DNA of 63,519 nt, filler included, from Reclinomonas americana ATCC 50394 (GCA_048213135.1; 17 parts of 17 records of this genome joined end to end with filler, not necessarily neighbours in it); one strand, 5' to 3'. Positions 121-63,442 are shown, counted from the first letter of the whole stretch. Translations and numbers: made by a program. The notes: generated by a model not told the origin, from the letters alone.

Positions 121-835
121 TCATTGATGACGAGGCCATGGTGGTGGTGGTGGTGGTGGCGGTACAGGGTGGTGTTGTTGTTGCTGAGCTTGCCGTCGGC
201 TTCTTCGCTCCACATGCCGCACAAACACCAATTCGGCTCCATTGTGCACACCAAGTGCACGCAGCGACGGTTGCAAGTGTAGCTCATCGCCGGTCAGCGG
301 CGGCAACAGCAGACCACCGCCGACACTCAATCGCTGTCGCTTCCACACGTATCGCCTGCATGACACAAAAACGAGGCGAGACATTTGAAACTTGGCCCTT
401 TCGCCAAAAGGCGCGCACAGCACACACAAACCAGCTGATACGACGCGGTCGAATGAGTGGCTCCTCGCGTACACGAATGGCGAGCTCAATGGCGCGTCGG
501 AGCTCCACGAGACCCTCATCGGGACGCACCACAATCGCTGCCAACAAGTCAGAGCACGCCTGCAGACGCAAGACACACTCACACGCAACGAATCCTCTCG
601 CCACCGTCCTTGCACAGCGTCAGCGTCCACGCAGAGCCCATCTCCGCCGCCAACAAACGCTGCACATCGTCAACTCGACACTCTGCGTGTGCGGCAAAAA
701 ATCAGTCAGACAGACAAGACGCACAACAGCTTGCGTTCAGTGCCGCGCACCTGCAGGCACATCCTGCAGCAACGGGTGCTCAAGAAGCCGCGCAATCTCC
801 GCCTCCACGTCGCCCTCTTCTCCTTCTCCAAGCAT
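121..835 (-). CDS. SNRNP25: U11/U12 snRNP 25 kDa protein (minor spliceosome, ubiquitin-like fold); 4 exons 835-751, 682-590, 537-432, 355-121
   Basis: Spliced translation (172 aa) MLGEGEEGDVEAEIARLLEHPLLQDVPAECRVDDVQRLLAAEMGSAWTLTLCKDGGERIPIVVRPDEGLVELRRAIELAIRVREEPLIRPRRISWRYVWKRQRL...LRALGVHNGAELVFVRH matches the SNRNP25 pattern (DPLLxDLP, ALExGxAxTxxxCK, ISWxYVW, LxxxGxxNxxExxF). All three GT-AG introns keep frame. An alternative in-frame ATG lies at 853. Confidence 0.9.
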
Positions 836-1010
836 GCATACGAAACACAACATGGAAATTTCCCTTCGTGTGTTTCTCTCGTCACAATGAACCCTGTGCG
901 TTGTCGGCGCACACTCCCTCGCCCACTCACTCGCCCACTCACCGCCACTCTCACAGGACGACATTGAGTACAAGTTAGAAGTGCAGCGATCCGTGCGCGC
1001 GCACAAGAAC
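836..1010. promoter_or_regulatory. Putative bidirectional promoter between SNRNP25 and U2SURP
   Basis: 175 bp between divergent start codons, with three tandem copies of a CGCC(C)ACTC(TC)AC motif at about 920-953. Confidence 0.5.
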
Positions 1011-4000
1011 ATGGTGAAGAAGCAGCGCGAGGACGAGGAACGACGCAAGCGCGAGGCCGAGGACGCTGCCGCACAAGAGCTGCAGACGTTTGTGCAGGCA
1101 TTCGTGGCGACGCCAACGCCAGCCCGAAAAAGCGCGTCGGCACCACTGGCGTCGCCGTTTGTGCGCGGCGGTGTGCTGGACCCCGGCAAGAACGTGATCA
1201 CTGCAAGCGGCGAGTCGACCGCTGCGACTGTGGCCACTGCGCACTCGTCTCCTCCGCGAGTGCCCTCTGCATTGCCGCTGCCGGCCGCGGGAGATGCGGT
1301 GCTGGCGATGGATGAGGCGGAGCAGCGATGGTTGCGCGAGGAGAAGGAGCGTGAGAAGAAGGAGCGTGCAAAGCGCAGGTTTCAGGCGGAGTTGGGCGTG
1401 TCGTCGTCGACGGCGGCGACGAGCAGTGCGGCGAGTGGGAGGCAGCGCGAGCTCGATGCGTACCTGTTGGAGATGAAAAAGTTGCGGCGTTTTTTGCTTG
1501 CTTGCAGGTATCTCTCTCTCATTGGGTGCACGCAGAGCGCGAGAGGAGCGAGAGATGGCGGCCAAGAGGAGGGAGGAGGCGGGCGCGTCGCCGGCTATTG
1601 TGTCGTCGTCTTGTTGCGTTGCGGTGCCTTGCATGCACCGTTTCCTTTTCTGCGAGTTGTGACGCGATTGCATGCAGCATCCGGGAGCCACCACGATTCC
1701 ACCGAGCCCGACTCCACGAATCTGTACGTCGGCAACCTGAGTCCGTCGGTGACCGAGGAGGACTTGCTGAGGGAGTTTGGAAAGTACGTGTGCAATCGCG
1801 TTGAGGTCATCTCTTGCAAATGTATGGCTCATCCGGCTTGCAGGTACGGCGCAGTCGGCAGCGTCAAGATCATGTGGCCGCGTACAGCCGAGGAGCGCGA
1901 TCGGAAGCGAACCAACTCGGGATTCGTGGCGTTCATGAAACGTGAAGAAGCCGGGCGTGCCTTGTCCGCGCTGTCGGGTTTGTTGTTCCTGCATGTGATG
2001 GCACGTGACGACGAGTGTTACTGATTAATGGCCGCAGGTGTCATGCTGCAAGGGTGTGAACTGCGTGTGGGATGGGGCAAGAAGGTCCCGCTGCCCCCAC
2101 GGCCAATCACCTGTGCGTCTGCTCGTTACTGTGAGATGATCGGGGTGGAGTCTCACGCATTTCTATTTTTTTGTCGTGCAGCAATGGGGTCGTCGCAGGG
2201 TGATGCACCGGTGAGCGTATGCTGTTCCATCCACTCTTCATATATCTCTCTGCTGACAATCTCTGCCACAGGCTGCTGCCAGTGTGGGTGTGGTTCCGAA
2301 TGGTGCGCTCACGCGGCGAGTTTGCTTCTCAGTGCCCGTGATGCTCATTTCCTTGTGCAGCATACGGCGTGCGCTCCACGGGTCAGATTCAGGTTGCGCT
2401 GCCGTCCGACGAAAAGACACGCAAGCTGATCGATCGACTCGCCAAGTACGTGGTGAAGGAGGGCTATCAATTTGAGGTATGCTTCGCCTTCCCTTGTTTC
2501 TTTGTTCGCCGTTTGAAGTGCGCTGTTTTTGTGTGCCACAGCTGGCGGTGTCGGAAAAGGAGCACGGCAATCTCGATTTCTCGTTCCTCTTCTTCAACGG
2601 GACTCCCGACAATGTGTACTACCGCTGGCGGATATTCTCGCTGGCTCAGGTGTGCCATCAGGGCGTTGTTTATTTTCTGTGTGGAATACTCTTCATTCAC
2701 CCGTTGTAACAGGGTGACACGCTGCGCGTGTGGCGGACAACGCCCTTTCAAATGTTTGCTGGCAACACCCTGTGGGTACCGCCACCTTGCAAGGATGCCC
2801 CTGTTGCGCACAATTCTCTCTCTCTCTCTTTCTCGTTCCGCGTCCCTCGGATTACTTACAGAGCACGCTGTTCAGCCTCCCGACGCTCGAGCCTCAGCCG
2901 TTGACGCGGAGTCGGGATCGACGTTGCTCGGTGTGCCGACGCGGAAACGCGTTCGTATCCTCAGCGACAGGCGACGGAAAGAGTTTTCGGTGAGCAATGT
3001 GAGCCTCTCTCATTATTGGTGCATCCAAACATGTACACTCACCGCCAATTGTTGATGTATTCAGGATCTGTTGGACAAGTTGACGGTGGAGAAAGATCGC
3101 GTGCGCGACGCCATGATGTTTGCGTTGGACTTTGCCGACGCTTCGGAAGAGGTTTGTGTGCGCTTCTACCAAGTTCTTGCTCACCTCGATGCTAAATTCC
3201 GTTGACGCTACTGCATAGGTCATTGACATGATCGCGGATTCGATGGCCAAGGAGGATGCGGAGCCGGCACGACGCTTTGCGTTGCTGTTCTTGGTCTCCG
3301 ACATTCTGTTCAACACCGGGTCGTCGAAAGTCAATGCCGGCCAGTATCGTTCCGGGTTTGTTGTCTGTCCTCTTCTCCTCTTCGTCCGCTGCCGCAGCTT
3401 CCTGACGAATCTGCGTGCGCTGCAGTTTCCAAGCTGTTCTGGTCGACATGTTTTCCGCGTTGAATGACATGTACCGTCGCGCTGGTGGTCGTTTCACTGC
3501 CGAGCTGATCAAAGAGAACGTGGTGCGCGTGCTGCGCGTGTGGGAGCGCTGGTCGCTCTACCCGCCACTCTTCATCCAGCGACTCGAAGCCACCCTGATT
3601 CGCGACAAGAACGCCGAAGCCAAGGCGGAAGAGCGCTCTGCGGCATCGTCGACAACCACACCAATGTCAACGTCGGTGCATGCAACTAGCGCGAGTGCCG
3701 TCAAGGACACTCCTCGGAGACGTGCAGAGGTGAGTGTCTTTCCTTTGTGTGATTTCGCTCAGTAGTTTTTCTGACGCTGATACCAGGCTCTCGCCGAGGC
3801 GCCGTACGATCCCGCGAATCCACCAATCTTGCCAGTGGAGCACATTTCGTTTGCACTTACCGAAGCCATTGGCTCTGCCGATCCTCCACCACCACCGCCC
3901 CCACCGCCACCATCTTCTTCGTCAGCAACAGCCCCGCCCAAGCCTCCATCCCAGGCAGGAGGTGGAAGGACGCCTGCAGCTGAGGAGTCGCGCTTGATGT

Positions 4001-5041
4001 ATGCCTACGAACCGGAACCGGAACCGCCCGAGGAAGTTCCGCGTGCTGCTGAGGATGCTGATTGCACCATGTCACTTACGTGATACTCTTTCAGGTCGCT
4101 CCAAGTCATCCGCTTGGCTTGTTTGGTGCACCGATTCCGGCCGGTCGGCAACGAGGTCTGTGATGGTCGGCGGGTGGTGATTTCTTTTGCCTGTGTGTCA
4201 CACTGGTTGCAGTGCCGTCGGTTTCGAGTCCCACTGCTGTGGCTTCATTACCAACGGCCATTCGCGCAAGCGATGACGGACCGGACACGCCGCCACCCGA
4301 AGACATCGACAGTGAGGAGGATGTGGATCCGCGTGAAGCGCTGCGGCAACGACAGCACCAGCACTCTGCCTCGTCTCACTCGCACCACTCGCAAAGTCAG
4401 CGTGCCCACGATGGTGCTTGTTGCCCGTGCCCTTCTTGTATTCCTCCACTGCGTGACTAACTTGTGCTTCCTCAATGGCGCAGCTCGTGCTAATGACACC
4501 GTGGAAGACGAAGAGACGAGGAAGCGACTGCGACAAGTGGAAGTTGCGTCGTCACCGACTACACTTTAGAGACGCCGTGTTACTAATGATCCGGCAGGTG
4601 GAGATTCTGAAGCTGCGCGATGCGCTGGAGAGCCAGGGCCTGCCACCCAGCGCCGTGGAGGAGCGGTGCAGAGCGCGACGAGCGGAGATGATTGCCAATG
4701 TGCATCGCTCGCCCACCATCGCAGCAGCCGACAACAGCAGCCGGCATCCATCCTCATCGTCGTCGTCGTCGTCGTCATCCAATCGTCGACGAGAGCCATC
4801 ACCGGAGCGACATCGCGACCGCCGTGACCGCGAGCACGACCGAGACAGCCGAGATTATCGGGACCGAGATAGAGATCGCGACCGAGACCGTGATCGGGAT
4901 CGCGATCGCGATCGTGACAGAGACCGAGATCGAGATTATCACAGGCGACCACCACCGCCGCCGCCGCCGCCACCATCAGGCAAGCGCGGTTCCAGTCGCA
5001 GTCCGTCAGGGTCGCCACCACGCAATCGGCAGCGGCGTTGA
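1011..5041 (+). CDS. U2SURP: U2 snRNP-associated SURP motif protein (SR140), multi-exon
   Basis: RRM (TNLYVGNLSPSV; VKIMWPRT; SGFVAFM; LRVGWGKKV), SURP (LIDRLAKYVVKEGYQFE; FSFLF; YYRWRIFSL), CID-like region (LFLVSDILFN; VLRVWERWSLYP), cwf21-like (LRQVEVEILKLRDALE) and an RD/RS-rich tail, in the canonical SR140 order. Some internal exon borders are uncertain. Confidence 0.93.
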
Positions 5042-5348: not shown

Positions 5349-5937
5349 TTATGGAATACGACTGGCAAACCGTTCCAGCGACAGCAGAGACTCCACGACA
5401 CTGTCGACGGTGATGCCGGAGAGTGCCCACAGATGCGGACACAGCTCCACCAACGCACGGTGCACGGTCAACAATGCGTCGCTGACTATGGCACGCAGCA
5501 CGTACGGCTCGAGTCCCGGCACCGAGATCAGCAGCAAGTCAATGTCGGTGTGACCGAAGCTCGGTGACACAGGGCCGACGGTGGTAGCATGCTGAACGGG
5601 GATACGATAAGCAGACTTGAATCGTGCACTGCCGGAAGAAAACATGAATCCTCACCGACAAGTGCTCGGGGCTGACCACGAACAGACAGCCGATGCAGTC
5701 ACGCAGCTGCGTCGGTCGGAATCGCACGTCACTCTCCGTCGTCAGCACTCCGTGTCGGATGACAACCTGTCGCGAGAATGACATGAGGCNNNNNNNNNNN
5801 NNNNNNNNNNNNNNNNNNNNNNNNNNNNNNNNNTTAATTAATTAANNNNNNNNNNNNNNNNNNNNNNNNNNNNNNNNNNNNNNNNNNNNCCTGTGAGAAC
5901 AAAAGTACAGTCAACTGAAACAACTGGCAAGGGTACG

Positions 5938-5968
<31 letters not shown>

Positions 5969-8839
5969 CACAAACACACCAATGTCAACAATGGTGGTTG
6001 CAGGCTGCTGCCGACAAATGCCAGCAATGGCCAGCTCCATGTCGAGATCTGTGCGCAGTAAACCCGACAACCGCGGTCGTTGTCGCATTGCCAGCCTGCC
6101 GGTACCGTGTGGAAGAGTGGCGATGGTGGGTCTGTCGCAGAAGTTTCGCGACGCGTGAGCAATCGATGAGACGCGGAACAAGAGATACTCTCTCTCCCTC
6201 TCTCTCCCTCACCCTGTGCGTCGAGTCATCACCACTTCGCCTCCCTCTTGCGCTCGCCGGTGCACTCGGAATTGAGCATCGATGAAGAATGTGGTGTCGT
6301 CGAGGCTCCTCATCTGCCGACCCGAGTCGGTGAGCGCTGCGGAGTGAGGGTCGGTGGATCAGTCACAACGCTGGAGCAAACGGTGGATACACCTGTATCA
6401 TACACAACTCCACATGCGCGCAATGAGCGGACCAAACTTGGCCATGGTGGTGCGCCTCGAGTGGTTGACATGGTACACTCGACTGACGGCGGTGACATTG
6501 ATGATCGCCCAGCGCTCGCGCTGCAGCAGACGATACAAGACCCACGGGTCCCAGTGATTCATGCCGGCGTAGAAATCGAGAAGCGGAGGAATGGCGCCTT
6601 GGACATGCACGCTCATGAGTCGCTGCGCGTGCGTGCGCGAGGAGATGGCGAGAGAGAGACTGATAACAAACCGGGAGTGTGTACAAAATAATCGATGCCA
6701 GTCGGTCCGTGTGGCTTGGCCGCGCGCACCTGTGGCATGCTCGAAAACCTGGCCTCCCAGTCGGAATCCTGCAGCGGGTCGCCGGGCACGCCATCCATGT
6801 CCCACCGCTCACCCACGAGCACAAAATCGGGAAATGTGGCGACGGCTGTCTCCAGTGCCTGCCGAGCAACAGTGAGAGGCGGCCACGGGCCGAGAAGGGT
6901 TGGGTGCGCACGTGACGCAACTCGACGCAGGGAAGATGCATGCACAACGATATCGCTGTTGATAAACATGTGCACTGGCGTGTCGTCGCCACACAGCTGG
7001 TGACCAGCGTCAAACACGCGACGCAGCAGCGGAATGTCGAACTCGCCGCGACGTATGCCAAGCGACTGTCGCGCCAACGTGAGTGGGAGCTGGTGACACA
7101 GGAGAGAGAGAGAGTGTGTGTGTGAAAGTTTGACGCACCTCCATGCCACAGTGGCTGATGGTGCCGACAGGAAAGCGTTGCAGCAACCACTCGCAGTCGT
7201 CGGAAAAGAGCACGAGACGAGCGAGCTTGAGTCGCGTCCACGAGGCAATCGCAGCATAGACGGCTGGCAGAGCAAGATGAGCAGGTGCAGTGCACTGAGC
7301 AGCAGTCGGCGAGACGCACCAAGTTGACTGCTCACTTCCTGCAGCGACTTGACCAGCGAGTACACACAAATCGCGCCGGTATCCCTGCACCAGTGAGAGT
7401 CAGCGATGCACATGAGTGAGTGCTCTGGCGCATCGTCAAAGGCTCACCACTGCGGCATGGTGCGCGCCAATCGGGTCGGGTCGAATCGGAGACGCGGCGG
7501 CACGGGTGTCGGCTGAATCCCGGTGCTTCGGAACCACCAGAGCGGCTGCCGTGCGGCGGGCACGGGAGCTGTCACAGTGTTGGACGAGCTCCAAGCGGCC
7601 GCCGACACGGCCCAGTAGTCGGAGCGGAAGACGATCTGTGCGCGCACACCAGTGAGACGAAATGAGATGCACGAGTTGGGGTATCCAAGAAAGACGAAAC
7701 CACTGGCGGGCGTGCGACACTCCGCACGAGACGACAGGCGATGGGCAGGAGGATGCCGAGCGGCACATCCATCCCGCGCGTCTTGTAGACGTGGTGAAGG
7801 AGGTCGTGCACGAGGGGCAACTGCAGCAGCGACCGCGCAATCATCTGCATGCACCCCGTCAGCGACAGAGTGTGTGGCGAGGTGGGCGGTAAAGGACAGG
7901 CAACGCACCAGATTGTGCGAGTCCCACTCATCGTACACCTCGGCGAGTGGCATCACGGAGTGCTCCTCGTCGGCGCGACCCACATGCTGCAGGAACTCGC
8001 GAACGACTGCACGCAGGCGATGCGGCAATGCAGTCTCGTGTCGAATCGAACGCCACACCACGACATCGACGCCAGAGGTCAGCAAGAAGCGCGGGCAGAA
8101 CGGCAACGGCGAGCCTGCAGGCGCGCACACACATTGTGTGAGATGCAGCTTCGTTACATTCCCCGCCTCACCAAATACGCACCGAGAAAGAACTGCGAGT
8201 CCACCAGCCACACACTCGCCTCGTCCGCCTCCGCCTCGTCGAGAACCACCTCCCACCACGGCTGCTTGGTGACGACGCTTCGCGGTCGCGCCTCGCGTGT
8301 ACGTGCAGCAGCGTCGCGCAGCACCGCCTCCACCATGCCGTTCACCTCCGTCGTCGTCGACACCACCACATGCACAGCATACGAGCCGGCCGCCGCAAAG
8401 TCCATCACGAAGCGATCCAGCATCGCCAGTGCCAGAGAGGCCGACCAGTGGCGATGAACTGGTGGTGCGTCTGCAAATGCAGTGAGCAGAGGAGCGAGAG
8501 GGTGAGCAGAGGACAACTCGCGCAACTCATGCTCAACACAATGCGCATTCTCGGAGTCGCCAGTCGCTCATTGCATCGCGTATGTGTATCGATGAGCGGT
8601 GGCGTAGTTGGCTGCGGTCGTGGCGGGAACGGGAACCAGTCGTCGTCGTCGTCGCGCCGGTTGTGGCGGCTGCGCAACTCGGAACGCACATCAAAGTCGA
8701 AAGCGTCGCTCGTGCTGCGACCGGGGCCGTCGGAGTTGCGCAGAACGAGAATGAACAGGAGGAGGAGAGAGGTGAGTGTAGCGACGACGAGGGTTATGGT
8801 GAGGAGGAGGAGCCGAGAGGAGCAGCAGCGGAGTGGCAT
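5349..8839 (-). CDS. Type II membrane glycosyltransferase-like protein with possible C-terminal FkbM-like methyltransferase domain (multi-exon, crosses a gap)
   Basis: N-terminal TM anchor (LLLLTITLVVATLTSLLLLFILV) and stem; GT-A-like motifs MFINSDI, LVGERWD, GIDYFV, GMNHWDPW, VYHVNH; then TIVDIG before the gap and DIDLLLISVPGLEPYVLRA...LVELCPHLW after it. The exon chain is only partly resolved and could be two genes. Confidence 0.55.
5790..5889. other. Artificial contig spacer N44-TTAATTAATTAA-N44 (first of 16)
   Basis: The same six-frame-stop linker also occupies 11801-11900, 17220-17319, 18556-18655, 19987-20086, 21394-21493, 24219-24318, 33182-33281, 35868-35967, 37692-37791, 39562-39661, 42122-42221, 45507-45606, 53166-53265, 57631-57730 and 62322-62421. 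Confidence 0.98.
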
Positions 8840-9277
8840 GTTGCGCGCGGCATCGAGAATTGGTCGGAGTGGACAATGGAGGGAGATGACTCATGACTGC
8901 ATCTGAGACGGGTGTGCAGTGCAGTCGTGCACAGCTGGCAAGCGAGCGAGTGGGGGAGGGAGGAAGCGGAGAGGGAAAAGGAGGGGGTTTGCCATGACAT
9001 GCAGCGTGGGGCAAGGTACGCGGGCGTGGGGAATGAGATGAGGACAGCTGAGCCTGCGTAGCATAGTGGTATTGCGTCGCACTCGTAATGCGAAGGTCGG
9101 GTGTTCAATTCACCCCGCAGGCATCGTTCTTTTTTGATTTTCTTTTTTTTTTCCTCAACAATCGATGCTGCTGCTGTTCTTCTGCCTGGTGGTGGTGTGT
9201 GTGCATTGAAAGTATGGCGTACTCGAACATTCCAATAATCCCTTTACACAAAAACTCCCATTCGCATCCACTTCCAC

Positions 9278-9693
9278 TCAGCGCTTGGTGGGATTGGTGG
9301 CCAGCTGCACAGCGTGTGTCGTCGTCAGTCACCCCATCCTCAATAACAACAATAACAAGAGACAACAGCCGCAGCGCACCTTTTCGCCAAACTGTGTGAT
9401 ATCGCACGTCACGCGCGGCTTGTAGCCCAGCTCGGTGCGCTCCGCCAGTGGCTCCGTGTCCCAGCCGTACTCGTGCGAGGCCACCTGCGGTCGCGTGTTC
9501 TTCTCACGCGGCAGCTTGTGCAACCGGCGCAGTGATTGCGTGAACTCGGCTGCAGCAACGAGAGGGAAAGAGAGACAGAACGAAACAGTCAGCGGAAAAA
9601 GGGAAGGGTAAGAGGAAAGGAGTCTGGCGGACCGGCTGTTGTTCCTTCCATGTCTCTGTCTTTCTATCCGTCGCTGACGCGCAGTGCGTTGAG

Positions 9694-9724
<31 letters not shown>

Positions 9725-10981
9725 CTTGCTCTTGTTGTTCTTCTTCTTGCTCTTGTTGTTCTTTTTCTTTTTCTTCTTTTCCCCCTTCTCCTCCTTTTCC
9801 TTCTTCTTCTTCTTCCCCTCCTTCTTCTCTCCTGACGCAATCAGCCTCTGTCCCTGCTTCCTTTATCTCCTTCACTCTCCTTCTCTCTCCTCAGACGACA
9901 GGGCTGTACGCCACGAGAACCGCCAGTGCATCGCCACCACTTGCTCGAGAATGAGAGGAAGAGCACACACAGGGAGACAAGGAGTGGAGGAGTCGGTCAT
10001 GGCATTGCGAGAGAGGAGAGAGGAGGGAATATCAAGCGGCCGGACTCACTCAGCTTCAGTTCTTTCTTCCCTTTCTCCACCCAGCCCAGGCACACAAGAT
10101 ACTCAGTGCACTGAGAGGAGAGACAGGCTCTGCTCCCCTCCCTTCGCCCTCTCCTCAGACACAGTGCTTCGAGAGATCAGGACTCGGCCTCTATCCTTGC
10201 CTCTTTCTCTGCTGTACTCCGTTGTCCTCTCCTCAGACGTGCAGCAGGCGGAGAGGTGGAGCACAGAGACGACCTCCGGCTCTGCGTTTCTCCCAGTGAT
10301 GTCTGCTTTCTCTCCTTCCTCCCCTCCCTTCACCCTCTAAACAAACACACACTGCTTCGAGATCCTGCCTCTTTCTCTTCTGTACCTCTTCGCCCTCTCC
10401 TCAGAAGAGCAGCAGGTGGAGTGGAGCACAGTGACAACCTCCTTCAGCTTCTGGCCCTGCGTTCCTCCCTGCCTCCCTGCTCCTTCCTCCCTCCCCCTTT
10501 CCCTTCTCCCCCTCCACCCTCCCGCCACGACACGCAACGATCAATCTCCTCTGCACTCCGCGTGGCCTGCAGACCACCACGACTGCCACCGAGCGATCCG
10601 GCTGTTCGCGTGGCCGTGGTCGCCGTCGCCGTCGCCGTCGCCGTCGCATTCTGTCGCCTCGCAGCACGCTCCTGCTGCTTCCGCTCAATCGACTCGAGCA
10701 GATACGCCTCCTTATCCAGGAAATGCGTCGGCCGCTTCGTCGGCTTCTCCGCAATGTCAGCCACTGTGGGGTGAGAGATAAGAATGAGAGACGGAAAAAC
10801 TCAGCGTGAAAAGCGGGCAGTGTGTGTGTGCCTCTCCGTTGTCATGCACGCAACATCGACGAGGATCGACAGAGAAGGTGGGCGGTGCACCGCCCGAGAG
10901 CACGTGCTTCTCCTTGTTCACATGCTCCACCCAGATCGAGTTCTTGCACACCTCGTCGATCTTTTCCGTCTTCCAGTTCAT
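9278..10981 (-). CDS. CFAP144: Cilia- and flagella-associated protein 144 (FAM183 family); exons 10981-10855, 10763-10539, 9549-9380, 9304-9278
   Basis: Spliced protein contains IDEVCKNSIWVEHVNKEK, FSVDP, IAEKP and LPREKNTRPQVASHEYGWDTEPL...VTCDITQF, matching FAM183 motifs (DxVxxNxIxxExxxKE; PxxKYxxPQTxxQExGW; xDITxY). Intron phases are consistent. Confidence 0.82.
9696..9830 (+). repeat. (TTC)n/pyrimidine-rich microsatellite in CFAP144 intron 2
   Basis: Direct observation. It produces the spurious poly-E/poly-L ORFs in the track. Confidence 0.9.
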
Positions 10982-11175: not shown

Positions 11176-11705
11176 ATGTCGTACCAGGTAATGTCTCACG
11201 CACACGCACACACACGCGCACAGTGAGAGAGAGAGAGACAGAGTGTGTGTGTGCGCGTGGAAATGTCGTCGCTCACGGGTGTGAGTCCCAACAGTCACCC
11301 GATTCACGAAAGGAGCAGTTCCGCAAGTACCTCGAGAGCACAGGTGTGATTGATGTGTTCACCAAGGTGCTCGTGGCATTGTACGAGGAGCCTGAGCGAC
11401 CGTCGAATCCGATCGAGTTGCGTCCCCTCTCTCTGTTGTTGATGATTGTCGATGCACACCACTCGCTCACTCTTCTTGTCTGTGCGACTCAGGTACATCA
11501 AGCAGTATCTGGGCGCACCCTCCTCCGACGAGCACCAGCGTGAGCAAGAGGAGCTCGCCGCACTGCGTGCAAAGAACGAGGAGTTGCAGCGACGGATTCA
11601 AGAACTCGAGTCGGTGCGTGTCTCTTTCTCTGCTACTCCTGTCTCCTCCTCATGAGCGTGATGACTGAATGGTGTGATGTGGCTGGCACACAGGGTGGTC
11701 AGTAA
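11176..11705 (+). CDS. MYCBP: c-Myc-binding protein / FAP174 homolog; exons 11176-11187, 11295-11416, 11493-11613, 11694-11705
   Basis: MSYQSPDSRKEQFRKYLESTGVIDVFTKVLVALYEEPERPSNPIEYIKQYLGAP plus a coiled coil is the MYCBP/AMY-1 signature. Confidence 0.93.
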
Positions 11706-42221: not shown

Positions 42222-42297
<76 letters not shown>

Positions 42298-49500: not shown

Positions 49501-52500
49501 GGAAGCTCGTTGGTGGATGTGAGCGGCGACACGGCAGCGTTTGTGATTTCGACGAGTTGTGCAGCGGCGGCCACGACTGCCATGATCGGTGTGTCGTCGA
49601 CGCCGCCGACGAGCATGGTGCTCTCGGTGAATGCGAGCAGTGTGGCGGCGGGATCGTATGTGCTGTGTGTGCGATGGAGCAATGCTGCGTTTGCGCAGTA
49701 CACGCAAGTTGGGAGCCTTGGAGTTGGTGAGTGGTAGTGGGAGAGGGAGTGCACATGTGTGTGTAGTGGATGTGTGCTTGGCTGAGCAGTGTCGGCTGAC
49801 TCGTGTGTTATTTTCTCTCTTGTGTGTGGTGTCACAGCCAATGTGACGAGTCTGTCGGTGCCTGCGATCAACAACCGAACGGGACAGACGGTGTCGCTGA
49901 GTGGAGCGGGATTTGTGACGCTGCTGTCGAGTAGTCTCGGGGCGGCATATGATGCGTCGGCGGTGATTGTTGCGGCGAGCTGCACGACGCCGTCGTCGAC
50001 GGCACCGACTGTGGCGACGGGTGTGACGGTGACACCGAGTGTGTTTACGAGCAGCAACAGCATGGGTGTGTCGATTGATGCGAGTGGATCGAGTGGCGGC
50101 GCACTGCGGATGTGTGCGCGATGGGCGTCGAGTGTGGCGTATGTGGATGTCGGTGCATTGTCTGTTGGTGAGCCGGGGTTGGGTGATGTCACGTGTGTGT
50201 TTACATGTGAGGGGTGATGTTCTCACGCGTGCGTGTGTGCATTTATGTATTGACAGCCAACTTCATCTCGACAACACCGACCAAGCTGGAGCCACTTACT
50301 GGCCGATCGTTGACGCTGACTGGCGCCGGCTACGTGAGCGTGACGGCAGACGCGGCGGCGTTTGTGATATCAGCGAACTGCAGCACTGTGAGCAGTGTGG
50401 CGACGTTGAGCAGTGTGACGCTTGTGAACTCGACGACGTACACGATGACGGTGGATGGGTCTGGAGTGAACTCCGTGGGGAGTCGACAAGTTTGTGTGCG
50501 ATGGACGGCGAGTGAGGCGTATCAGACTGCGATATCGATTGAGATTGGTGAGTGGGAAGAGTGCGGGAAGCGGGGGGTGGGGGGGGGGGGGGAGGGGAGT
50601 GAAGAAAACTGACTGTTGTGGTATGTGTGTGTGCAGGATCTGCGACTGGATTCAGTCCGGGAATGATCCGAGGAGCCGACTCGACGGCGGTGCTGACGCT
50701 GAGTGGGACACTGTTCTCGGCGACAGACAGTGTGATTCTTGAGCGTGCGACGACATGCACGGCAGCGGGTCCGCCGGCGATGAACATGGTGTCGCCGGGT
50801 GGAGTGATCAGTGCGTCGGCGAACCGACTGCAGCTGACGGTGCCGATTGGCGGAAGTGGCATTTCGCCGGGCGGCGACTTTTCGTTGCGTGATGTGTGTG
50901 TGTAAGAGAGTGGGTGGGCGAATGAGGGTTGTTGACGAGTGATATATGTGTGTGTATGTGTGTTTGTGCATGGATGCAGTGTGTGCATTCGGTTCTCTGC
51001 GAGCGGATCGTACTTCAAAGTGGGCAGCACGTCGTTGGTTGTCCGTGAGTAATCCCCCTTGACTGCTGTGCTGCGCTGTGTGTTGTGTTGTGTGTTTGTT
51101 TATGAGTGGGTGTGCGTGCGTGTGACTGACCGTGTCGGTGTGGGTGGGTGCAGCACTCGGTCTGACATTCAGTCCTGCATCGATTCTCGCGGAGGATGCG
51201 ACGGCGACTCTGGTGATCACCGGAGCGGATCTGATTCCGACGACGGCGATTGTGGGAGTGCAGTTTGAGCCGGGGACGGCGTGCACTGGAACGAATCCAC
51301 TGTCGACACAAGCGGCGACATTTGTGGCGAACGGAGCGCTGACGCAGCTGACAGTGACAGTTGGTGGCAACGGACTGCTGCTGCCGACGGGAACGCCGCC
51401 GTTCACGTTCAGTGTGTGCGTGCAGTACTCGCCGACACCTGGATCGTACTTCAAGGTCGGGACGACGGAGTTCACTGGAGGTGAGTTGATTGTGAGGGGG
51501 AAGAGGGGAGGGGAATCGGAGGAGAATGAGTTGGATGGCTGACTGTGTGGCACACAACAGTGTCGACGACGTCTGGATTCACGCCGAGTGTGATCAATCG
51601 AGTGGGAGCAGGAGCGGCGTTTACGATTCTCGGGCGCGGTCTGTCGACGAATGATGTTGTGCGACTGGAGGTGGGATCGATGGCGTGCACGGCGAGTGGC
51701 GGCAGCTTCCCGGTGATGGTGAATGGGTCGGTGAGCGGCGGACCGGGAGCGCGACAACTGGCAGTGACAGCGCAGGGTGCGACGGTGGCGGCCGTAAGTG
51801 CTGGGAATTGTGCGGTGTGCATTCGGTTCGGCAACGTCGGCAACTTTTCACTGGTTGGATCGGTACAACTTTTTGTGGCTGACGCGACGTCTGCGAATCC
51901 GCCAGCCATGGCCGCGCTGTCTGGGCGGACGATTCAGATCAGCGGCACTGCGATGCCAGACGTGAGCACCGATCCGCTGGCGTTTGTGCTGTCGTCGGGA
52001 ACGTGCACTGGCACGCCGTCGAGTGTGGTGACGATGACGAGCATGCGGACGGTGGATACTCTGATCACACTGACGATTGACGCCAGCACGACTGCAGCCG
52101 GGGCGTACACGGTGTGTGTGCGGTGGCTGGCGACGAGTGCATACACAACGGCAAGTGGGTCAGCAGCGACTCTGAATGTTGGTGAGTGTATTGGGGAAGG
52201 AGCTTGGTGGGGCCAGTGAGTGAGTGACTGACACTGTGGTTTATGTGCACGCACAGCCACATGGTCAACTCAGGTTCCTCGAGCCGTATTCACGGTGACG
52301 ACGCCGAGTCAGACGATCGCTTTGACGGGAAGCTCGTTGGTGAATGTGAGCGGCGACACGGCGGCGTTTGTGATTTCGACGAGTTGTGCGGTGGCGGCGA
52401 CGACTGCCGTGATCAGTGTGTCGTCGTCGACGCTGCCGACGAGCATGGTGCTTGCGGTGAATGCGAGCAGTGTGGCGGCGGGGTCATATGTACTGTGTGT

Positions 52501-53165
52501 GCGATGGAGCAATGCTGCGTTTGCGCAGTACACGCAAGTTGGGAGCCTTGGAGTTGGTGAGTGGTAGTGGGAGAGGGAGTGCACATGTGTGTGTAGTGGA
52601 TGTGTGCTTGGCTGAGCAGTGTCGGCTGACTTGTGTGTTATTTTCTCTCTTGTGTGTGGTGTCACAGCCAATGTGACGAGTCTGTCGGTGCCTGCGATCA
52701 ACAACCGAACGGGACAGACGGTGTCGCTGAGTGGAGCGGGATTTGTGACGCTGCTGTCGAGTAGTCTCGGGGCGGCATATGATGCGTCGGCTGTGATTAT
52801 TGCGGCGAGCTGCACGACGCCGTCGTCGACTGCACCGACTGTGGCGACGGGTGTGACGGTGACACCGAGTGTGTTTACGAGCAGCAACAGCATGGGTGTG
52901 TCGATTGATGCGAGTGGATCGAGTGGCGGCGCACTGCGGATGTGTGTGCGATGGGCGTCGAGTGTGACGTATGTGGATGTCGGTGCATTGTCTGTTGGTG
53001 AGTCGGGGGTTGGGTGATGTGACGTTGTGTATATGTATGTGTGGAGGGGTGATGTTCTCACGCGTGCGTGTGTGCATTTATGTATTGACAGCCAACTTCA
53101 TCTCGACGACGCCGACCAAGCTGGAGCCGCTTACTGGCCGATCGTTGACGCTGACTGGCGCCGGC
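43596..53165 (+). CDS. Giant secreted protein built of ~100-aa TIG/IPT-like Cys-containing repeats (3'-truncated)
   Basis: Hydrophobic N-terminus (LVFLSLLAFAVLC); more than 15 repeats of the form F[ST]PxxI...TITGxGL...C...GxYxVCxx[WF]...VGxxxLxVG, mostly one repeat per phase-1 exon. Confidence 0.78.
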
Positions 53166-56200: not shown

Positions 56201-57630
56201 AACACTCGCCGCCACAACTCGCCCTGCTCCTCCTTGTTGAGAATGACAAGCCGGTGATGGAACATGTGACTCGCCAGCCGATATCCGAAATCACGCATGG
56301 CACGCACAGCATCGGCCTCGTCAACAAACATGCCCTATTATGCGCGAGTCAGACCGCCGATGTACGCAAAAGTGCATCCACACGAACACACATAATGAGG
56401 AGCCAACAAACCGCAGGCGCATTGGTTGCCGCACGAGCAAACCACCATTCGACAAAGTGATGATACAACTCGCCACGAAACACAGGCTTTCGCCGAGCTC
56501 CATCACCAGTCACCGACGTCAACTTGGTGATGACTCGCACCGCCATCGTAAGCATCAGCGGTAGTCGCACAAGCCGCTCGAGACCCAAGACCGACTGAAT
56601 CGCCGAGTCGTACCGCGTCCAGTCGCTCCACTCAGAGTCCCCAGTGGCAACAAATCTGAAGCCAAGAGAAAATAAGCGCAAAATTATTGCAGAAAACCAA
56701 ATCACACTGCCGTGGACAAACTGCTGCAAGTACTGCTGGATGTCGTTGTGTTGGAAGGGGCGAAGCGCGCACTGATCCAACTCGTGCACACCGATGCGAT
56801 GCTTGGAGCCGGTGGGCGACACGGCGATGGTGGGGTCATTGGGAGCAATGGGCTCGAACACCTGGGCAGCGCGCGGCCCGACCACGTGATGCAAGAACTC
56901 GGTTTGGCACGACACAATCAGCTTGAGCGACGTCCACTCGTGCAACTCATTGGTCTGGTAAATGTTGCGCAGGTCGGTCGACACAATCTCGTCGTACCCG
57001 TCCAGTACGAGAAGCAGCGGTGGCGATCGTCGCTGCTGCAGCTGACGAACCTGCAAGTGTCACACAAGTGAGGCACTGGTGTCACACGAGGAAATCGAAA
57101 GTGTGTGCAATCGTACCTGCTGCGCCGAAAAGCCCTCTTTGCAGAGCAGATAGTCCACCACGCGATGATAGGGATTGCGAATGGTGTTGAGATTGGCCAT
57201 AATGTACACAGGAAGGTCATCCTTCCAGCGCCACTGCTGCCAGGCGAGCGCAGTGACACGTCGCAGGAACTTGCTCTTGCCGGCTCCGGAGCCGCCACTC
57301 ACTAGGAGCACCTGCATCCAGTGTCATCGACCATGTGAAAGAGGTGCACACCACCAATCATGTTACCTTTCGCTTGCGGTTTTCTTTATCTACAAAGGAC
57401 TGCAGCACGTCCGTGGCAGCCTCGTCATGCTGGTCGTTGGGATGGCGTCCGGCGCGAGGCGCAATAAAAATGTTGAGACCGTGCGTCTCTCCCTCCAAAA
57501 AGCGCATCCACCGATGCCGCAACCGCAAGAACAGCATGCACATGACGCGATCCCGCTGAGGCTGCACACACAAGGAGGGTCAGCACGTGACAATGGCAGT
57601 GTGCATGGCAGACTGGGGCTGCACAAACCA
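53266..57630 (-). CDS. NACHT NTPase - pentapeptide repeat - WD40 protein (NLR-like STAND), partial at both ends
   Basis: Walker A VLLVSGGSGAGKS; Walker B LLLVLDGYDEI; LPLML; FVHNSILEYFAA; AAANAISVL followed by pentapeptides (LRGADLRNVSLDGAWLRGAILDNAQM); more than ten GH..V...SGS.D.TVRVWD repeats. Confidence 0.92.
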
Positions 57631-58363: not shown

Positions 58364-59560
58364 TCTTCGTGTGTTCCTGGGAGAAGAGGACACCATGACA
58401 CCCTTCCACGCAACATCGGAGGGCGGAAGTGTGAGGCGGTGTGGCACGCAAGAACCTCGACTGCGGGAAAGTATGACAGCGCGAACAGGCAGTGGTGCAG
58501 CTGCGCAGTCTGCATTGGAGTTTCAGCAAAAGTTTTTCCGTGGCCACGACGCTGTTTGTTGTCGACGTCTTCCCATGTTAAGAAGCTGTATGAGGACTGG
58601 ACATGCAGGATACAGCTCATGCGAACGGCTTGGTGGGGGAGGTGGAGGGTGGTGAGGGTGGTGAGGGTGCCGAGCGTTGGGGTCGACCGCATAGAGAGAT
58701 TCGAATATTCAGGAGCGGACGCACTCGAGCTCGAGCCCAGCAGCGTTCACACTCGCATGCACGACAACGTGTCCATCAGCATCAAGTGTCAGTGGCTGTG
58801 GATGCGCTGACACTGCGAGCACGACGGGAGAAGATGCATGGCCCACGACGACGAGGCACAGGATGTGCGCATCTGCATCGAATTCTTCACGATCGGATAA
58901 TTAAACTCTCTGGCCAACTACTATTTTTTGAGCGCCTCGTGTGCCCCACGCACATCGCAGTGCGCCAGCTGCAGCTTGGCGACGCTGGTCGAAGGGTGCG
59001 GTTGTCGTGAGGCCGATCCAACGCGGCGTGCGCCCGATGCGATTGCAATCGTGGTATGTCAGAGCGCACCTTTTCGTCCGAAACTCTTCGGACGTTCACC
59101 GCCGTGGAGAGAGAGGGGGAGAGTGGCAAGAGTGGAGGAGACGCTGGAGGTGAGTCGCAGTGGGGGCAAGTAGGGGAGAATCCGCTGTTAAGATGCACTC
59201 TTGTACAAGCATGCATGCAGAAAACCACGCGCCCATTGACAAGCGATTACCCGCTGCACCCTGCAGCTGCACATCAGCAGCAACCAGCCGCAAGGCGGGA
59301 TGGAACACAGGCCACGAACGCAGGCTGCCAACCGACCCGGAGAAACTCTAATCTGCAAGTTCGCATTTGGCTATTGTCCCCCTGGAAAAGGCCAGGAGCA
59401 TATGCGCATTCAAGGGCAGATCTCATTTTTTGACCGCATCGTCCTTTTTTCTCGTCTTTCTTTGAGCGAAGACCAGGTGCCTTCACTTCTTGTTTCCTCC
59501 TCGAACTTATTCGCATCTTTCACGATCACTCATCGCTCTCTCCTCTCCCCACCCTGCAGC

Positions 59561-62276
59561 ATGTCTCTCTCTCGTCGCACCTCGACAACACTGCTCCTCG
59601 TGGCTCTTGCCATGACACTGCTCGCCACCACCGCCATGGCCTGCAGTGGCGACTCGGAATGCAACTACCCCTACGGATACTGCAAGTCGTTGCGTCTCGC
59701 TGCGAGGGAGAGTGATGCTGTTTTTTCTCCCTGCTTGCTTTTGTTTTGTTTTGTCTGATTGTTGTGTTTGACACATTCTTCCGCCTTCTTCACCCTCTTA
59801 TCCTCGCCCCCTTTCTCCCTCTCCTGCTTCCCTCTCGCGTGTTGTCACCTCGGGCTCCGCTGCATGCGTGTGCGGAAAGAGTTTTCGAGTTTCGGACTTT
59901 TTTCTATGATCATGCCCTTTCGTCTGTGCGTGTGCCGCCTCTCTCGTTGTTTTCCTGTATCTCGCTGTCGATCAAGGCAGTGTTGTGTGATCTCACGTCT
60001 CTTTGCCTTGACTCTCACCATCCCCCTTCCCCCTCTCGCTCTCTCTCTCTCCCTGCAGTGGCTCGTGCATCTGCGGCAACCGCTCTGACGGCTCCCTCAA
60101 CCTCAACCGCGGCGATTCGTGCCAGTGCTACGCTGGTGGCAAGGGCGGCCAGTGCAATGGCGCGCAGTATCCAAACAACTACGCCTACGGCACCTCCACT
60201 CAGTGCACGACGGCCGCCGCCTGCATTGCCGCCACATCGACCCCGCCGGTGGCGACGTGCTCCATTGACTCGGACTGCAACTACCCGTTGCGTTCTTAAC
60301 TCGTGCACTCTTGTATACGCACACCGCAGTATGCTGACAATATTCCTCTCCCGGCACACAGGTACGGTTTCTGCCAGTCCGGTTCGTGCTTCTGCGGCAA
60401 CCGCAGCGACCTGTCGCGCAACCTCAACGTGGGCACGCACTGCCAGTGCTTTGCGGGCGGCCGCGGTGGCGAGTGCAATGGCGTCAACTACCCCAACAAT
60501 TACTCCTTCAACGGCGGATGCGGCTCGCCGGCCGCCTGTGTGGCCTTCACCGAGTGCGCTCCGTGCCCGGCCAATCAGTACCAGTCGTCGCCGTGCACAC
60601 CCATGGCTGATCGCGTGTGCACCGACCTCACCGTGTGCCAGGCGGGCGAAGTCGAGCGTGTCGCGCCCACCGCCACCAGTGATCGCGTGTGGTGAGTTTT
60701 TGTTCGGAAAAACTTCTGCCTGTCTTTATGCATGCTGCTCATCGTACCCGTCGCAGTGCCACCCGCGGAGGCATCGTGAGCGGCACCGTGAAGGACGCCT
60801 TCAGTGGCACCCTCATGTCCGGTGTGGCCGTGAGCATCGGCAGCCACAGCACCTTCACCAACGACCAGGGCACTTTCTCGTTCGGTGTCCTGGACGCCAC
60901 TCCCAGCGCGGTGCTGATTGCCTCGTACACCGGCTACCTCGTCAACTACCGCACCCTGTCGATTGTCGACGGCGAGACAACCTGGGTCAACGTGCAGATC
61001 GCGCACACTCAAGTGCAGCAGCTGGTGACTCCAGCCATCGGCGGCGCCGTGTCGAGCAACTCGCACACGGTCACCTTCCCGGCCAACGCGTTCGCCTACG
61101 CCGACGACCCAACACAGCTCGTGACGAATCCGGTCAGCGTGTTCCTGGCAGGCTTCGATTTCAGCAGCGCGAATGCACACATGAACGCCTTCCCCGGCGA
61201 TTTCATCGGCCGTGACGGCAGCGGCAACTCGGTGTCGCTGAGCAGCCTTGGTTTCCTCCATGTGCGCATGGTGGACTCTGTCAACGGAAAGATTGTTGAG
61301 CTGGCGCCTGGCGTCTCCGCCACACTGCGCCTCGAGTCGGCTCTCTCTGCCACGGCACCGGCGACCGTGCCTCTGTGGAGCTTCGACACAGCCTCTGGCC
61401 AGTGGGTGCAGGAGACGTTTGGTGCGCGTGACGGCTCGGCGCTGGTTGGCTCGTGCGTACCCCTTGCCTTTCTCTCTCTCTCTCTCTCTCTGTTCCTTTC
61501 GTCTAACCGCAGTGTGTCTCCTCGGCAGGGTGACGCACTTTTCGTACTGGAACTGGGACATTGTCGACCAGACCATTTACGCCACCGGCTGCGTGACGTT
61601 TGCCAGCGGCGCACGAGTGTCCAACGTGGAGGTCGTTCACACGGGTGAAGGCTTCATGGGCTCGTCGAGGGCACTGACTCAGTGGGACGGATGCTTCCGT
61701 ATCCCTGTCCGTGCCGCAAGCACGATTCACCTGGTGGCCACCTACTTTGGCGTCAACGGCACGGTGCTGACACTCGTCACCCCCGCGTACCCGCACGCCG
61801 ATATTGCCGTCGGCAACCTGCTGCTCACGACGGCTCCGATTGACTTGTACGTGTTGCTGACTTGGGGTGTGCACCCGCACGACCTCGACAGCCACCTGTT
61901 CACGCCGGTTCCGGCCCCCAACCCGGCTCACCACATCTACTATGTGAACCGTGGCTCCCTGATCGTCAATCCGTTTGCCGGCCTCAACACCGATGACACG
62001 ACATCGTACGGACCGGAGATCATTGCCGTCAACTTCCAGCCATCGCTCCTCGGCAACTTCACCTACTGCGTGCACAACTACTCGGGCGAGGCAGGCATTG
62101 AGACGTCGGGCGCAGTGGTGCTGTACGTGTACCCCAAGAAGTTCAAGTTCCAGTTTTACACTGTGCCGACCTCCAACCCCAACCACTACCGCTGGTGGAA
62201 GGTGTTCTCGTTCAACCGTGCCGGAACGTCTGCGACCTTCAGCTCCGTCAACACGTTCGTCAACGCCTGCACTTGA
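59561..62276 (+). CDS. Secreted chimeric protein: two Cys-rich repeats, TNFR-like Cys module, carboxypeptidase-regulatory-like domain, THFSxWNxD domain and DUF2135/YfaP-like C-terminus
   Basis: Signal peptide; duplicated CSxDSxCNYPYGxCxSGSCxCGNRSD...CQCxAGGxGGxCNGxxYPNNY; CPANQYQSSPCTPMADRVC; VSGTVKDAFSGTLMSGVAV; VPLWSFDTASGQWVQE...VTHFSYWNWD; LTWGVHPHDLDSHL...DDTTSYGPE...VHNYS. Confidence 0.75.
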
Positions 62277-62618
62277 GCGGCCACCAGTGCGACAGTTTTG
62301 TGGATAGGCGTGTGTGCATTGNNNNNNNNNNNNNNNNNNNNNNNNNNNNNNNNNNNNNNNNNNNNTTAATTAATTAANNNNNNNNNNNNNNNNNNNNNNN
62401 NNNNNNNNNNNNNNNNNNNNNCCATTCGCCGCAGCGGCAGCGTCGCCGGTGGCACTGCACCGATGGCCGGTACCGATGTGCGCGCCAGCACAGGTGCCGC
62501 AGCACCACCCTCCTCAGGAGCAAGCTTGACCGCCACGGGTGGCGTGCGAGCGAGGTGAGCGAGCGCAGGCTAGCGAAATTCACCAGGGAAGAGACTCATG
62601 TTGTGCATCGCAGCAGTG

Positions 62619-63442
62619 GAAGCATGTACGGCGGCGGCGCATCGGTGCCTCCGGAACTCATTGAGCAGCTGCAAAAGTCCATCACAGAGGGTTTCACAAA
62701 GATGGAGGCCAAGACCGCCGAGTTGACCAGCAATACGGCACTGGTGGAGCAAATCAAGGTGCTGACCGAGAAATTGGAGGCCGAGTCGCAGCGCAGCAAG
62801 GAGCTGGAGATGAAGGTACGCACGCACCTCTCCGAATTCTTGTTGTCCCATGTGGCGTGACTTGTTTGTTTGCCAGTTGCATGCATTTGATGTGGAGGCG
62901 GAGAAGAAGATGACGGCGCTGCGAAATGAGCTGATGGAGAAGAGTCGCGCCACCGAGTCCACGCTGGAGCAGCGACTTGCCGAGGCACAAGCGGAGCACA
63001 ATCGCTTGCGACAGGAGGCCAATTTGGCGAAACTGGCACACGCCCAGGAGCTCAAGAGTTGCGTCCCGCAAGTTGCACCCGCAAGTGTGCGTGTGTGAGC
63101 TGACAGGCTGCTTCTTGTGCTTGCGCTACACGCAGACATGACCGACGCCGCAGAAGCGCGTGCGACTCGCGATGCTGCCGATCGTGCGCGTGCCGTGGAG
63201 GATGTCGAGTCGAGATGGAGACAGCGAGCGGAGCACGAGCGCACGCTTCATGCCCAGGCGCTCTTCACCAAGGAGCAGATGCACACCGAGGCGCTGGAGA
63301 CCCAACACCGTCTCTTCAAGCAAGAGAACGCCGCACTGGTATCGCAGGATGCCATCAATCGTCGCCTGGACGAGATGACCACCAAGCTGACGGTGGAGGC
63401 CGACAAGGTCGCCAACTTGCAGCGGCACGCACTGGAGGAGCG
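62619..63442 (+). CDS. Coiled-coil protein (partial, multi-exon)
   Basis: E/K/R/Q/L heptad-rich exons joined by frame-compatible GT-AG introns. Confidence 0.7.

Follow-up and report, generated by a model that had tools for sequence, protein, structure and literature searches.

GTTGCG as a second 5' splice-site class among introns predicted in Reclinomonas americana

Outside the GT itself, a G at intron position +5 and a G at the end of the exon (-1) are the most conserved positions of a splice donor, and they are read by U1 and U6. How, then, might a donor be read that has neither? The question is raised by a stretch of 63,519 nucleotides (nt) from Reclinomonas americana ATCC 50394 (GCA_048213135.1), hereafter the window, in which a preliminary description listed 23 introns that begin GTTGCG and took them for a second major donor class, the normal donor shifted by one nucleotide. 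Predicted gene structures show H|GTTGCG(T/C), where the bar marks the exon-intron junction, to be a genuine second 5' splice-site class here. It heads about 12-20% of the window's introns, roughly one in six.

The window consists of 17 contigs of 1,098-8,863 nt, separated by 16 spacers of the form N44-TTAATTAATTAA-N44 (the first at 5790-5889, with 15 further sites) that place stops in all six frames. Because these 16 joins are artificial, genes cannot be traced across them and features that appear to span them are artefacts. The sites had been assigned to 11 genes over a span that crosses the joins; our recount gives 13 gene fragments. The G+C content is 57%, and the genes are densely split by short introns with a median length near 70-75 nt.

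Placement of the GTTGCG word

All 23 positions read GTTGCG on the strand assigned to them, and the base tallies of the preliminary description were reproduced exactly: the last exon base is A in 8, T in 9, C in 6 and G in none, and position +7 is T in 16, C in 6 and G in 1. The claimed exclusion of G at -1 is strong (0/23, compared with 50/76 among the other donors of the window, p=3e-9). It recurs within one curated gene, encoding a U2SURP/RRC1-like splicing factor, where 0/4 GTTGCG donors and 9/11 ordinary donors follow a G. At +5 the GTTGCG introns have C in 23/23, whereas 52 of the 76 other donors have G. The class therefore departs from the usual donor consensus (+5 G, -1 G) at both positions.

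What stands out is the placement of GTTGCG at donors and not its abundance. The window holds 66 copies, compared with 65.34 expected from dinucleotide shuffles (standard deviation 7.73), and 49 of 100 shuffles reach 66. The heptamer GTTGCGT is nonetheless a listed donor at 16 of its 21 occurrences, and GTTGCGC at 6 of 25. The 43 copies of GTTGCG that are not donors have G at -1 in 9 cases, and T at +7 in 5, compared with T at +7 in 16 of the 23 donors. We also scored sites for intron-likeness independently of the donor (acceptor plus coding potential on both sides). At a threshold of at least 30, intron-like sites made up 12/21 for GTTGCGT, 110/800 for random GT, 13/33 for GGTGAGT, 6/24 for GGTGCGT and 0/11 for GTTGAGT. 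In a weak test, hexamer enrichment upstream of strong acceptors, GTTGCG was enriched 2.7-fold at threshold 8, equal to GTGAGT; it ranked third at threshold 10 and was absent from the list at threshold 12.

The class also emerges from a gene finder that is blind to the donor. This Viterbi finder uses two codon classes, a trained acceptor, and intron length and composition, and scores any GT donor equally; earlier versions, built on one codon table, were drawn towards the fn3 genes with their strong codon bias and overlooked ordinary ones. Among the 125 introns it predicted, GTTGCG was the top donor hexamer (16), followed by GTGCGT (11) and GTGAGT (9). About 0.9 GTTGCG donors would be expected among 125, given 66 of 8,751 GT hexamers. 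GTTGCG is thus far commoner at predicted donors than expected. A version with learned hexamers (133 introns) again returned 16 GTTGCG donors, all of them among the 23. The finder also called a few GTTGTG donors, one GTTTCG donor and no GTTGAG donor.

The finder is rough (it placed the correct donor at 4 of 11 curated ordinary introns of the U2SURP-like gene), and it missed 7 of the 23 sites: 589, 1481, 4543, 6921, 10538, 10854 and 29970. Two of these, 1481 and 4543, are supported by a profile hidden Markov model (HMM), and at 10854 and 10538 a false antisense model across a low-complexity region displaced the introns. These omissions, with the in-frame neighbour taken at 6921, bear out the earlier warning that gene predictors would mis-model such introns. 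Predictors with a single donor model misplace or miss GTTGCG introns, and our finder and the preliminary description both illustrate how easily a frame-preserving neighbour is chosen. Thus, the proteomes of this lineage may carry systematic errors.

Homology or paralogy pins eight GTTGCG junctions to a single residue: four belong to a gene for a short-chain dehydrogenase (SDR), one to a MYCBP-like gene, one to the U2SURP-like gene and two to a Cys-rich repeat gene. For the candidates at 589 (-), 6921 (-), 10538 (-), 10854 (-) and 29970 (+), the support consists of compatible frames and a good acceptor. Among the 43 other copies of the word, the sole plausible extra donor is at 13432 (-). This possible 24th member (13358-13432, minus strand; GTTGCGCAT) would head a 75-nt intron with a good acceptor and long flanking frames.

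Variants of the word had been proposed as well. GTTGTGT at 33390 (-) is doubtful; it lies on another contig than the SDR gene, and the 3' end of the intron falls in a (GA)n run. Judged by eye, one more intron of the U2SURP-like gene (4036-4095, plus strand) appears to begin with GTTCCGC. Together with GTTTCGT at 46999 it hints at a wider GTTNCG(T/C) family.

Junctions fixed by homology and paralogy

All four visible introns of the SDR gene start with GTTGCG (32941, 32846, 32663 and 32005, minus strand). Against Pfam adh_short, residues 7-26 of exon A correspond to profile positions 76-95, residues 2-37 of exon C to 111-146, and residue 1 of exon D to 150. Counting the 11 residues of exon B and two split codons, exon C should reach position 111 at its second residue, as observed; exon D likewise begins at the position expected, and the profile coordinates run without a gap across three junctions. 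The PDB chains 8g9v_A and 1yb1_A have exactly one residue between exons C and D. This is the catalytic Tyr of YxxxK, the codon of which (T|AC) is split by the 553-nt intron. The chains found with exons C and D were not recovered in PDB searches with exons A and E, the junctions of which were settled by Pfam coordinates and the HMM described next.

An HMM of 51 full-length SDR homologues, which were found using the last exon, scores the GTTGCG model at 322.6 bits. Moving one donor 3 nt downstream to a GC (hereafter GC+3) gives 315.2-316.0 bits, a cost of 6.6-7.4 bits (315.2 at 32005, 315.9 at 32846 and 316.0 at 32941). Other in-frame GT donors give 294.1-313.0 bits and cost 9.6-28.5. The SDR junctions that had been placed by conserved motifs are therefore held to the residue, the one at the catalytic Tyr by Pfam, PDB chains and HMM, and the one at 32005 by the HMM and an ungapped alignment.

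The MYCBP/FAP174-like junction at 11417 (+), placed earlier by its motif (PIE|YIK), is fixed by four lines of comparison. Residues 42-77 of exon 1 correspond to 3-38 of PDB chain 7som_T and residue 1 of exon 2 to 42, so that the exons abut save for one split codon. In Logan/ENA assemblies, a MYCBP of 103 residues (P0241, 90% identical) reads across the junction with no extra residue, and an open reading frame (ORF) from an MMETSP transcript (P0243) reads straight over it. The identity of P0241 indicates that a close relative of this organism is present in public data. Of 26 metagenome homologues we used 25, leaving out L026, the match of which ends before the junction. At the junction 23 of the 25 are intronless with the same spacing, and two have an intron at the same place and in the same phase. 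These two (L002:1884-2040 and L003:742-900) are the closest genomic relatives of this MYCBP, at 73% and 68% identity. Their introns are tiny (~31 nt) and belong to a different organism; GTACGT and GTAAGT serve as donors, and the 3' end is of the CTAAC/TTTACAC type. Thus, the position is an old one, occupied here by an intron with GTTGCG.

In the U2SURP-like gene we curated 14 introns in addition to that at 4543; 4 GTTGCG donors and 11 ordinary donors coexist in this one gene. A protein search returned land-plant RRC1 proteins at ~30-45% identity and no close relative. Against an HMM built from 60 homologues, the spliced model scores 490.1 bits in one domain; with the introns at 1481 and 1613 retained it falls to 477.4 bits in two pieces (-12.7). 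At 4543 (+) the GTTGCG donor scores 21.7 bits, compared with 16.8 for GC+3 and 12.8 for a GT 6 nt upstream. The introns at 1481, 1613 and 2803 are set by frame and by the HMM, GC+3 being indistinguishable by homology (-1.5, +0.8 and -1.5 bits). For the 2803 intron, the conserved W-PPP stretch and the acceptor enclose no second usable GT, and the earlier intron end of 2861 has to be replaced by 2875 (490.1 versus 324.3 bits).

The two junctions of the Cys-rich repeat gene (59689 and 60287) check each other, as each lies inside an uninterrupted stretch of the other repeat copy, without a gap.

Table 1. GTTGCG introns of the window, followed by genes of the window (GC+3, GC donor 3 nt downstream)
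Feature	Span	Strand	Length (nt)	Evidence or remark
GTTGCG intron candidate	538..589	-	52	compatible frames and CAG acceptor; missed by gene finder
U2SURP/RRC1-like intron	1481..1535	+	55	frame change required, HMM; GC+3 variant -1.5 bits, not decisive
U2SURP-like intron	1613..1677	+	65	HMM as for 1481; GC+3 +0.8 bits, exact codon unfixed by homology
U2SURP-like intron	2803..2875	+	73	HMM; acceptor 2875 preferred
U2SURP-like intron inside cwf21 domain	4543..4597	+	55	HMM; cwf21 match
GTTGCG intron candidate	6859..6921	-	63	frames and acceptor; finder preferred in-frame GTGCAT 24 nt upstream (6945)
GTTGCG intron	8471..8526	-	56	recovered by gene finder
FAM183/CFAP144-like intron candidate	9550..10538	-	989	downstream exon matches Pfam FAM183 52-107; upstream exon low-complexity, donor unfixed
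FAM183-like intron candidate	10764..10854	-	91	frames, CTCAC motif, CACAG acceptor
MYCBP/FAP174-like intron, phase 2	11417..11492	+	76	continuity with PDB 7som_T; P0241 and P0243; metagenome homologues
GTTGCG intron candidate	29970..30044	+	75	frames; missed by gene finder
SDR intron	31915..32005	-	91	HMM; ungapped against four full-length homologues over CP..INTGMF
SDR intron with CT-rich repeats	32111..32663	-	553	PDB, Pfam, HMM; splits catalytic Tyr codon
SDR intron	32784..32846	-	63	Pfam adh_short continuity from exon A to C; HMM
SDR intron	32882..32941	-	60	Pfam adh_short continuity; HMM
GTTGCG intron	35389..35468	-	80	recovered by all gene-finder versions
fn3 gene intron, phase 0	36646..36729	-	84	gene finder; flanking exons with weak fn3 matches
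fn3 gene intron, phase 0	37201..37268	-	68	gene finder
fn3 gene intron, phase 0	37392..37466	-	75	gene finder; upstream exon weakly matches fn3 12-41
Large repeat-rich gene intron	50884..50979	+	96	gene finder; short downstream exon, moderate support
Cys-rich repeat gene intron	59689..60058	+	370	inside uninterrupted stretch of second repeat, ungapped
Cys-rich repeat gene intron	60287..60361	+	75	inside uninterrupted stretch of first repeat
Coiled-coil gene intron	63058..63135	+	78	recovered by gene finder
U2SURP/RRC1-like splicing factor gene	~900-5000	+		
FAM183/CFAP144-like gene	9373-10981	-		
MYCBP/FAP174-like gene	11176-11650	+		
Short-chain dehydrogenase (SDR) gene	31631-33024	-		close to HSD17B11/13
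Two ankyrin genes, fn3 genes, one WD40 gene	window			

How the word may be read

All 23 GTTGCG introns begin with GT and all 23 end at a CAG acceptor. A branch-like motif, CT[CGA]A[CT], lies 6-45 nt from the 3' end in 20/23 of them, in 54/76 other introns and in 11/99 exon controls, at a median distance of 23.5 nt in the GTTGCG introns and 23 nt in the others; median intron lengths are 75 and 70.5 nt. As the branch-like motif, acceptor and length are those of ordinary introns, these are U2-type GT-AG introns, not U12-type ones. They are somewhat richer in pyrimidines than the others (0.66 versus 0.59, p=0.02). An all-against-all blastn comparison of the interiors of 99 introns gave, among the 23, one 18-nt and one 15-nt low-complexity hit. 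Their interiors are thus unrelated, and they are neither a repeat family nor introner copies. Two GTTGCG introns are outsize (32111-32663, 553 nt; 9550-10538, 989 nt) and full of CT-rich or GA/AAG-rich low-complexity repeats.

We tentatively rank first, at slightly less than an even chance, a reading in which ordinary U1 and U6 recognise GTTGCG in an offset register; it has a known precedent and explains the base at +7. Cleavage would occur before the G of the GT as usual, and the part of the donor normally found at +3 to +6 (G-C-G-T, as in G|GTGCGT) would be placed one base further in, with ordinary U1, and later the U6 ACAGAGA box, pairing in a register offset by one. Either the U1 helix would be shifted, the intron's first G replacing the usual exon-end G, or a U would be bulged at +2/+3. 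A G at -1 would be avoided because it restores the normal register. The C at +5 (GCG, not GAG) would provisionally be an added requirement of the lineage's machinery, as the offset itself leaves it unexplained.

G-C-G-T is the +3 to +6 sequence of GTGCGT, which is among the commonest ordinary donors. Position +7 of the GTTGCG class (T16/C6 of 23) resembles +6 of the ordinary donors with G at +5 (T35/C10 of 52, p=1) and differs from their +7 (T 15/52, p=0.002). Thus, +7 behaves like an ordinary +6, as a one-base offset predicts. Paired by hand with the standard U1 5' end given by Tan et al. (2016; PMC4856993), AUACUUACCUG, which may not be that of this organism, the word would form four Watson-Crick pairs and one wobble in the offset register, compared with two and one wobble in the normal one. 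The earlier notion of a normal donor shifted by one is thus partly supported: it captures the +7 and -1 patterns, but it fails on the restriction to GC, on the missing GTTGAG and on G being less frequent at -1 than ordinary donors have it at -2.

These failures, and several further observations, weigh against the offset register. At +3/+4 the ordinary donors with G at +5 have GA in 16, GC in 12, TT in 7, GT in 5 and AT in 4, whereas the GTT class has nearly all GC. None of the 11 copies of GTTGAGT in the window is intron-like, and GTTAAGT does not occur in it. Yet with the standard U1 end an A, as in GTTGAGT, would make the offset helix stronger than C does at +5. G at -1 (0/23) is lower than ordinary G at -2 (17/76, p=0.01), which a pure shift does not predict; the bulged register would favour a G at -1 and the shifted register would tolerate one. 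The 76 other donors used for comparison are mostly predicted (65 of 76), and one of them, 6945 (-), competes with one of the 23 listed introns. The better-pairing GAG being unused and -1 G being below -2, something beyond the standard U1 helix appears to select GCG and to reject G at -1. No gene for a small nuclear RNA (snRNA), whether U1, U6, U11, U12, U4atac or U6atac, was found in the 63.5-kb window by Rfam at gathering thresholds or to E<=1; the hits were a tRNA-Thr and sub-threshold noise.

The offset register also gives no account of how the class is distributed among genes. GTTGCG heads 4/4 introns of the SDR gene, 3/4 of an fn3 gene and 4/9 on the minus strand of the contig at 5890-11800, compared with 1/19 in the large gene at 45607-53165 and 0/8 in each of the contigs at 11901-17219 and 53266-57630. 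Over 18 contig-strand groups and 99 introns, a permutation test with a chi-square-like statistic gives p=0.0005 for this clustering, the effect size being uncertain as the comparison introns are mostly predicted. A sum-of-squares statistic, which ignores group sizes, gives p=0.47.

Several of these points would be met by a dedicated snRNA, an unlikely alternative that still deserves serious weight. This would be an RNA complementary to GUUGCGU, either a second U1-type species or U1 itself with a changed 5' end, perhaps with adapted U6/U5 contacts. A word that stays rigid over 6-7 bases is more easily explained by base pairing than by a degenerate, mismatched helix; a G in the partner would explain the required C at +5 and the absence of GTTGAG, which standard U1 does not; and donor classes recognised chiefly through intron bases likewise have no preference for -1 G. 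Gene clustering is also easier if the two classes are handled separately. However, the U1 5' end is nearly invariant in eukaryotes, +7 mirrors the ordinary +6 as if the reader were shared, and both classes adjoin in single genes with identical 3' signals. That no such RNA was found in 63.5 kb says little either way. We consider rather unlikely a model of two parallel 5' splice-site readers for U2-type introns, ordinary U1 and a second U1-like snRNA or a remodelled U1/U6 complementary to GUUGCGU. If it were true, a particle of its own would commit about one-sixth of introns, mostly those of certain genes, to splicing.

Might no specific reader be needed at all? GT, the 3' signals and short length would then suffice, with GTTGCG left over from introner-like insertion, gene conversion or mutational bias. 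Ordinary donors are indeed loose at +3/+4, and the clustering in certain genes and contigs and the higher pyrimidine content of the GTTGCG introns fit such an origin, as do the intron families with donor words of their own described for Micromonas by Verhelst et al. (2013; PMC3879977). Nevertheless, six bases are invariant in 23 introns with dissimilar interiors, which points to selection on the word. The enrichment of T at +7 over the non-donor copies and the use of 16 of the 21 GTTGCGT heptamers as donors argue the same way, and the MYCBP intron, at a position common to two distant relatives with ordinary donors, is not recent. We therefore regard this explanation as improbable. Equally improbable, in our view, is a sequence-specific protein (a U1-associated or other RNA-binding factor) that reads UUGCG(U) and recruits the ordinary spliceosome. 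It would suit the GCG requirement and the avoidance of -1 G, neither of which is predicted by standard U1/U6 pairing, and clustering by gene would fit regulated use. There is no candidate factor and no direct evidence for it, however, and the likeness of +4 to +7 to GTGCGT, like the match of +7 to +6, would become coincidence.

A transformed minor (U12-type) spliceosome, the 5' motif of which had drifted to GTTGCGT, is very unlikely. A rigid word of ~7 bases with no preference for -1 G is typical of U12 donors, and a large expansion of minor introns is known in one slime mould. The donor here is GTTGCG(T/C), not [AG]TATCCTT, and has 4 of 7 bases in common with the GTATCCT consensus; the 3' region has the CTSAC-type motif of ordinary introns, with the same distance, pyrimidine run and CAG acceptor; and a share of ~12-20% is far above the usual level of minor introns. 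Least credible of all is a mis-modelling of the introns, with the true donor at GC+3 or at another nearby GT: the GC is always in frame and adds one residue, homology does not decide at 1481, 1613 and 2803, and five sites are supported by frames, but the alternatives cost 6.6-7.4 (GC) or 9.6-28.5 bits (GT) at the SDR junctions and 4.9 (GC) and 8.9 bits at 4543, no residue is lost or gained in the Pfam and PDB coordinates, P0241 lacks an extra residue, and paralogous repeats fix 59689 and 60287.

Neighbouring features and known systems

The MYCBP/FAP174 and FAM183/CFAP144 genes suggest a flagellated or ciliated eukaryote, to judge from predicted proteins. A Pfam search with exons 1-2 of the FAM183-like gene gave no FAM183 match. 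A tRNA-Thr (anticodon CGT; 9052-9123, plus strand, 70.8 bits) lies just downstream of this gene on the opposite strand. The large repeat-rich gene contains a tandem duplication (48956-50200 and 51788-53100, plus strand) with a period of ~2.83 kb and 84-93% identity, and the paired introns of the two copies retain their donors (e.g., GTGAGT at 49350 and 52182).

The two ankyrin genes are paralogues on different contigs, and their GTTTGT introns (22679-22755 and 26384-26451, plus strand) have a 23-nt identical stretch in common. A metagenome scan with an ankyrin ORF confirmed none of 31 pattern matches. The WD40 gene (53266-54624, minus strand) finds its best database matches, at ~30-39% identity, in metagenome, bacterial and fungal proteins labelled simply 'WD40 repeat protein' and not in a conserved eukaryotic orthologue; these generic hits do not help with intron placement. 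Between 30000 and 38000 the strands are strongly asymmetric; on the plus strand the GC skew reaches +0.30 and the AT skew +0.37. The genes there are on the minus strand, their introns are extremely CT-rich, and GTTGCG introns are concentrated in these contigs.

A full-text string search of the literature turned up, among the matches listed, no GTTGCG or GUUGCG splice-site class, although logos in figures and supplements escape such a search. The class, described here from 63.5 kb of sequence, has precedents in the offset registers of human and the donor-word classes of Micromonas.

U12-type introns have the donor [AG]TATCCTT and a branch box, TCCTTAAC, near the 3' end. The GTTGCG introns are like them in having a long, rigid donor word, no -1 G and a minority place beside ordinary introns. 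They are unlike them in the word itself, in the absence of a TCCTTAAC-type branch box, in their ordinary 3' signals and in being far more frequent. GC-AG introns come to mind because every GTTGCG contains, 3 nt in, a GC that would keep the frame. However, the GC reading is worse wherever homology decides, and GC donors usually need a strong consensus, which GCG(T/C) does not provide.

The closest parallel for several donor-word classes in one genome is Micromonas. There, according to Verhelst et al. (2013; PMC3879977), several intron classes with donor words of their own coexist. These are families of repeats (introner elements) or, in one region of a chromosome, a class set apart by composition; AG|GTGCGT and an NCTGAC branch motif are preferred in the ordinary class. 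The ordinary introns of our window are much like that AG|GTGCGT class. Unlike the Micromonas families, the GTTGCG introns have unrelated interiors, and they differ from ordinary introns by a one-base offset and a C at +5.

The parallel for the register is human. Roca and Krainer reportedly described, in 2009, human 5' splice sites that U1 recognises in a shifted register. Tan et al. (2016; PMC4856993) proved in human cells that U1 can pair in a shifted register or with a +2/+3 bulge; validated non-canonical registers together make up 1.5% of human donors, and the +2/+3 bulge class comprises 68 sites. As at the human offset sites, the GU of the donors described above is followed by one additional U, after which comes the match to the normal +3 to +6; cleavage is at the GU, and +7 resembles +6. 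Unlike them, a single word heads between 16/125 and 23/~99-133 introns, it is fixed as GCG and never GAG, and G at -1 is excluded; the human registers are proven in cells, while the present class is known from sequence. A free-living eukaryote with an invariant GUUGCG, C at +5 and never a G at -1 in a large minority of its introns would offer a natural experiment in how far 5' splice-site recognition can be re-registered or duplicated, and offset-register recognition, a rare human curiosity until now, would become testable at genome scale.

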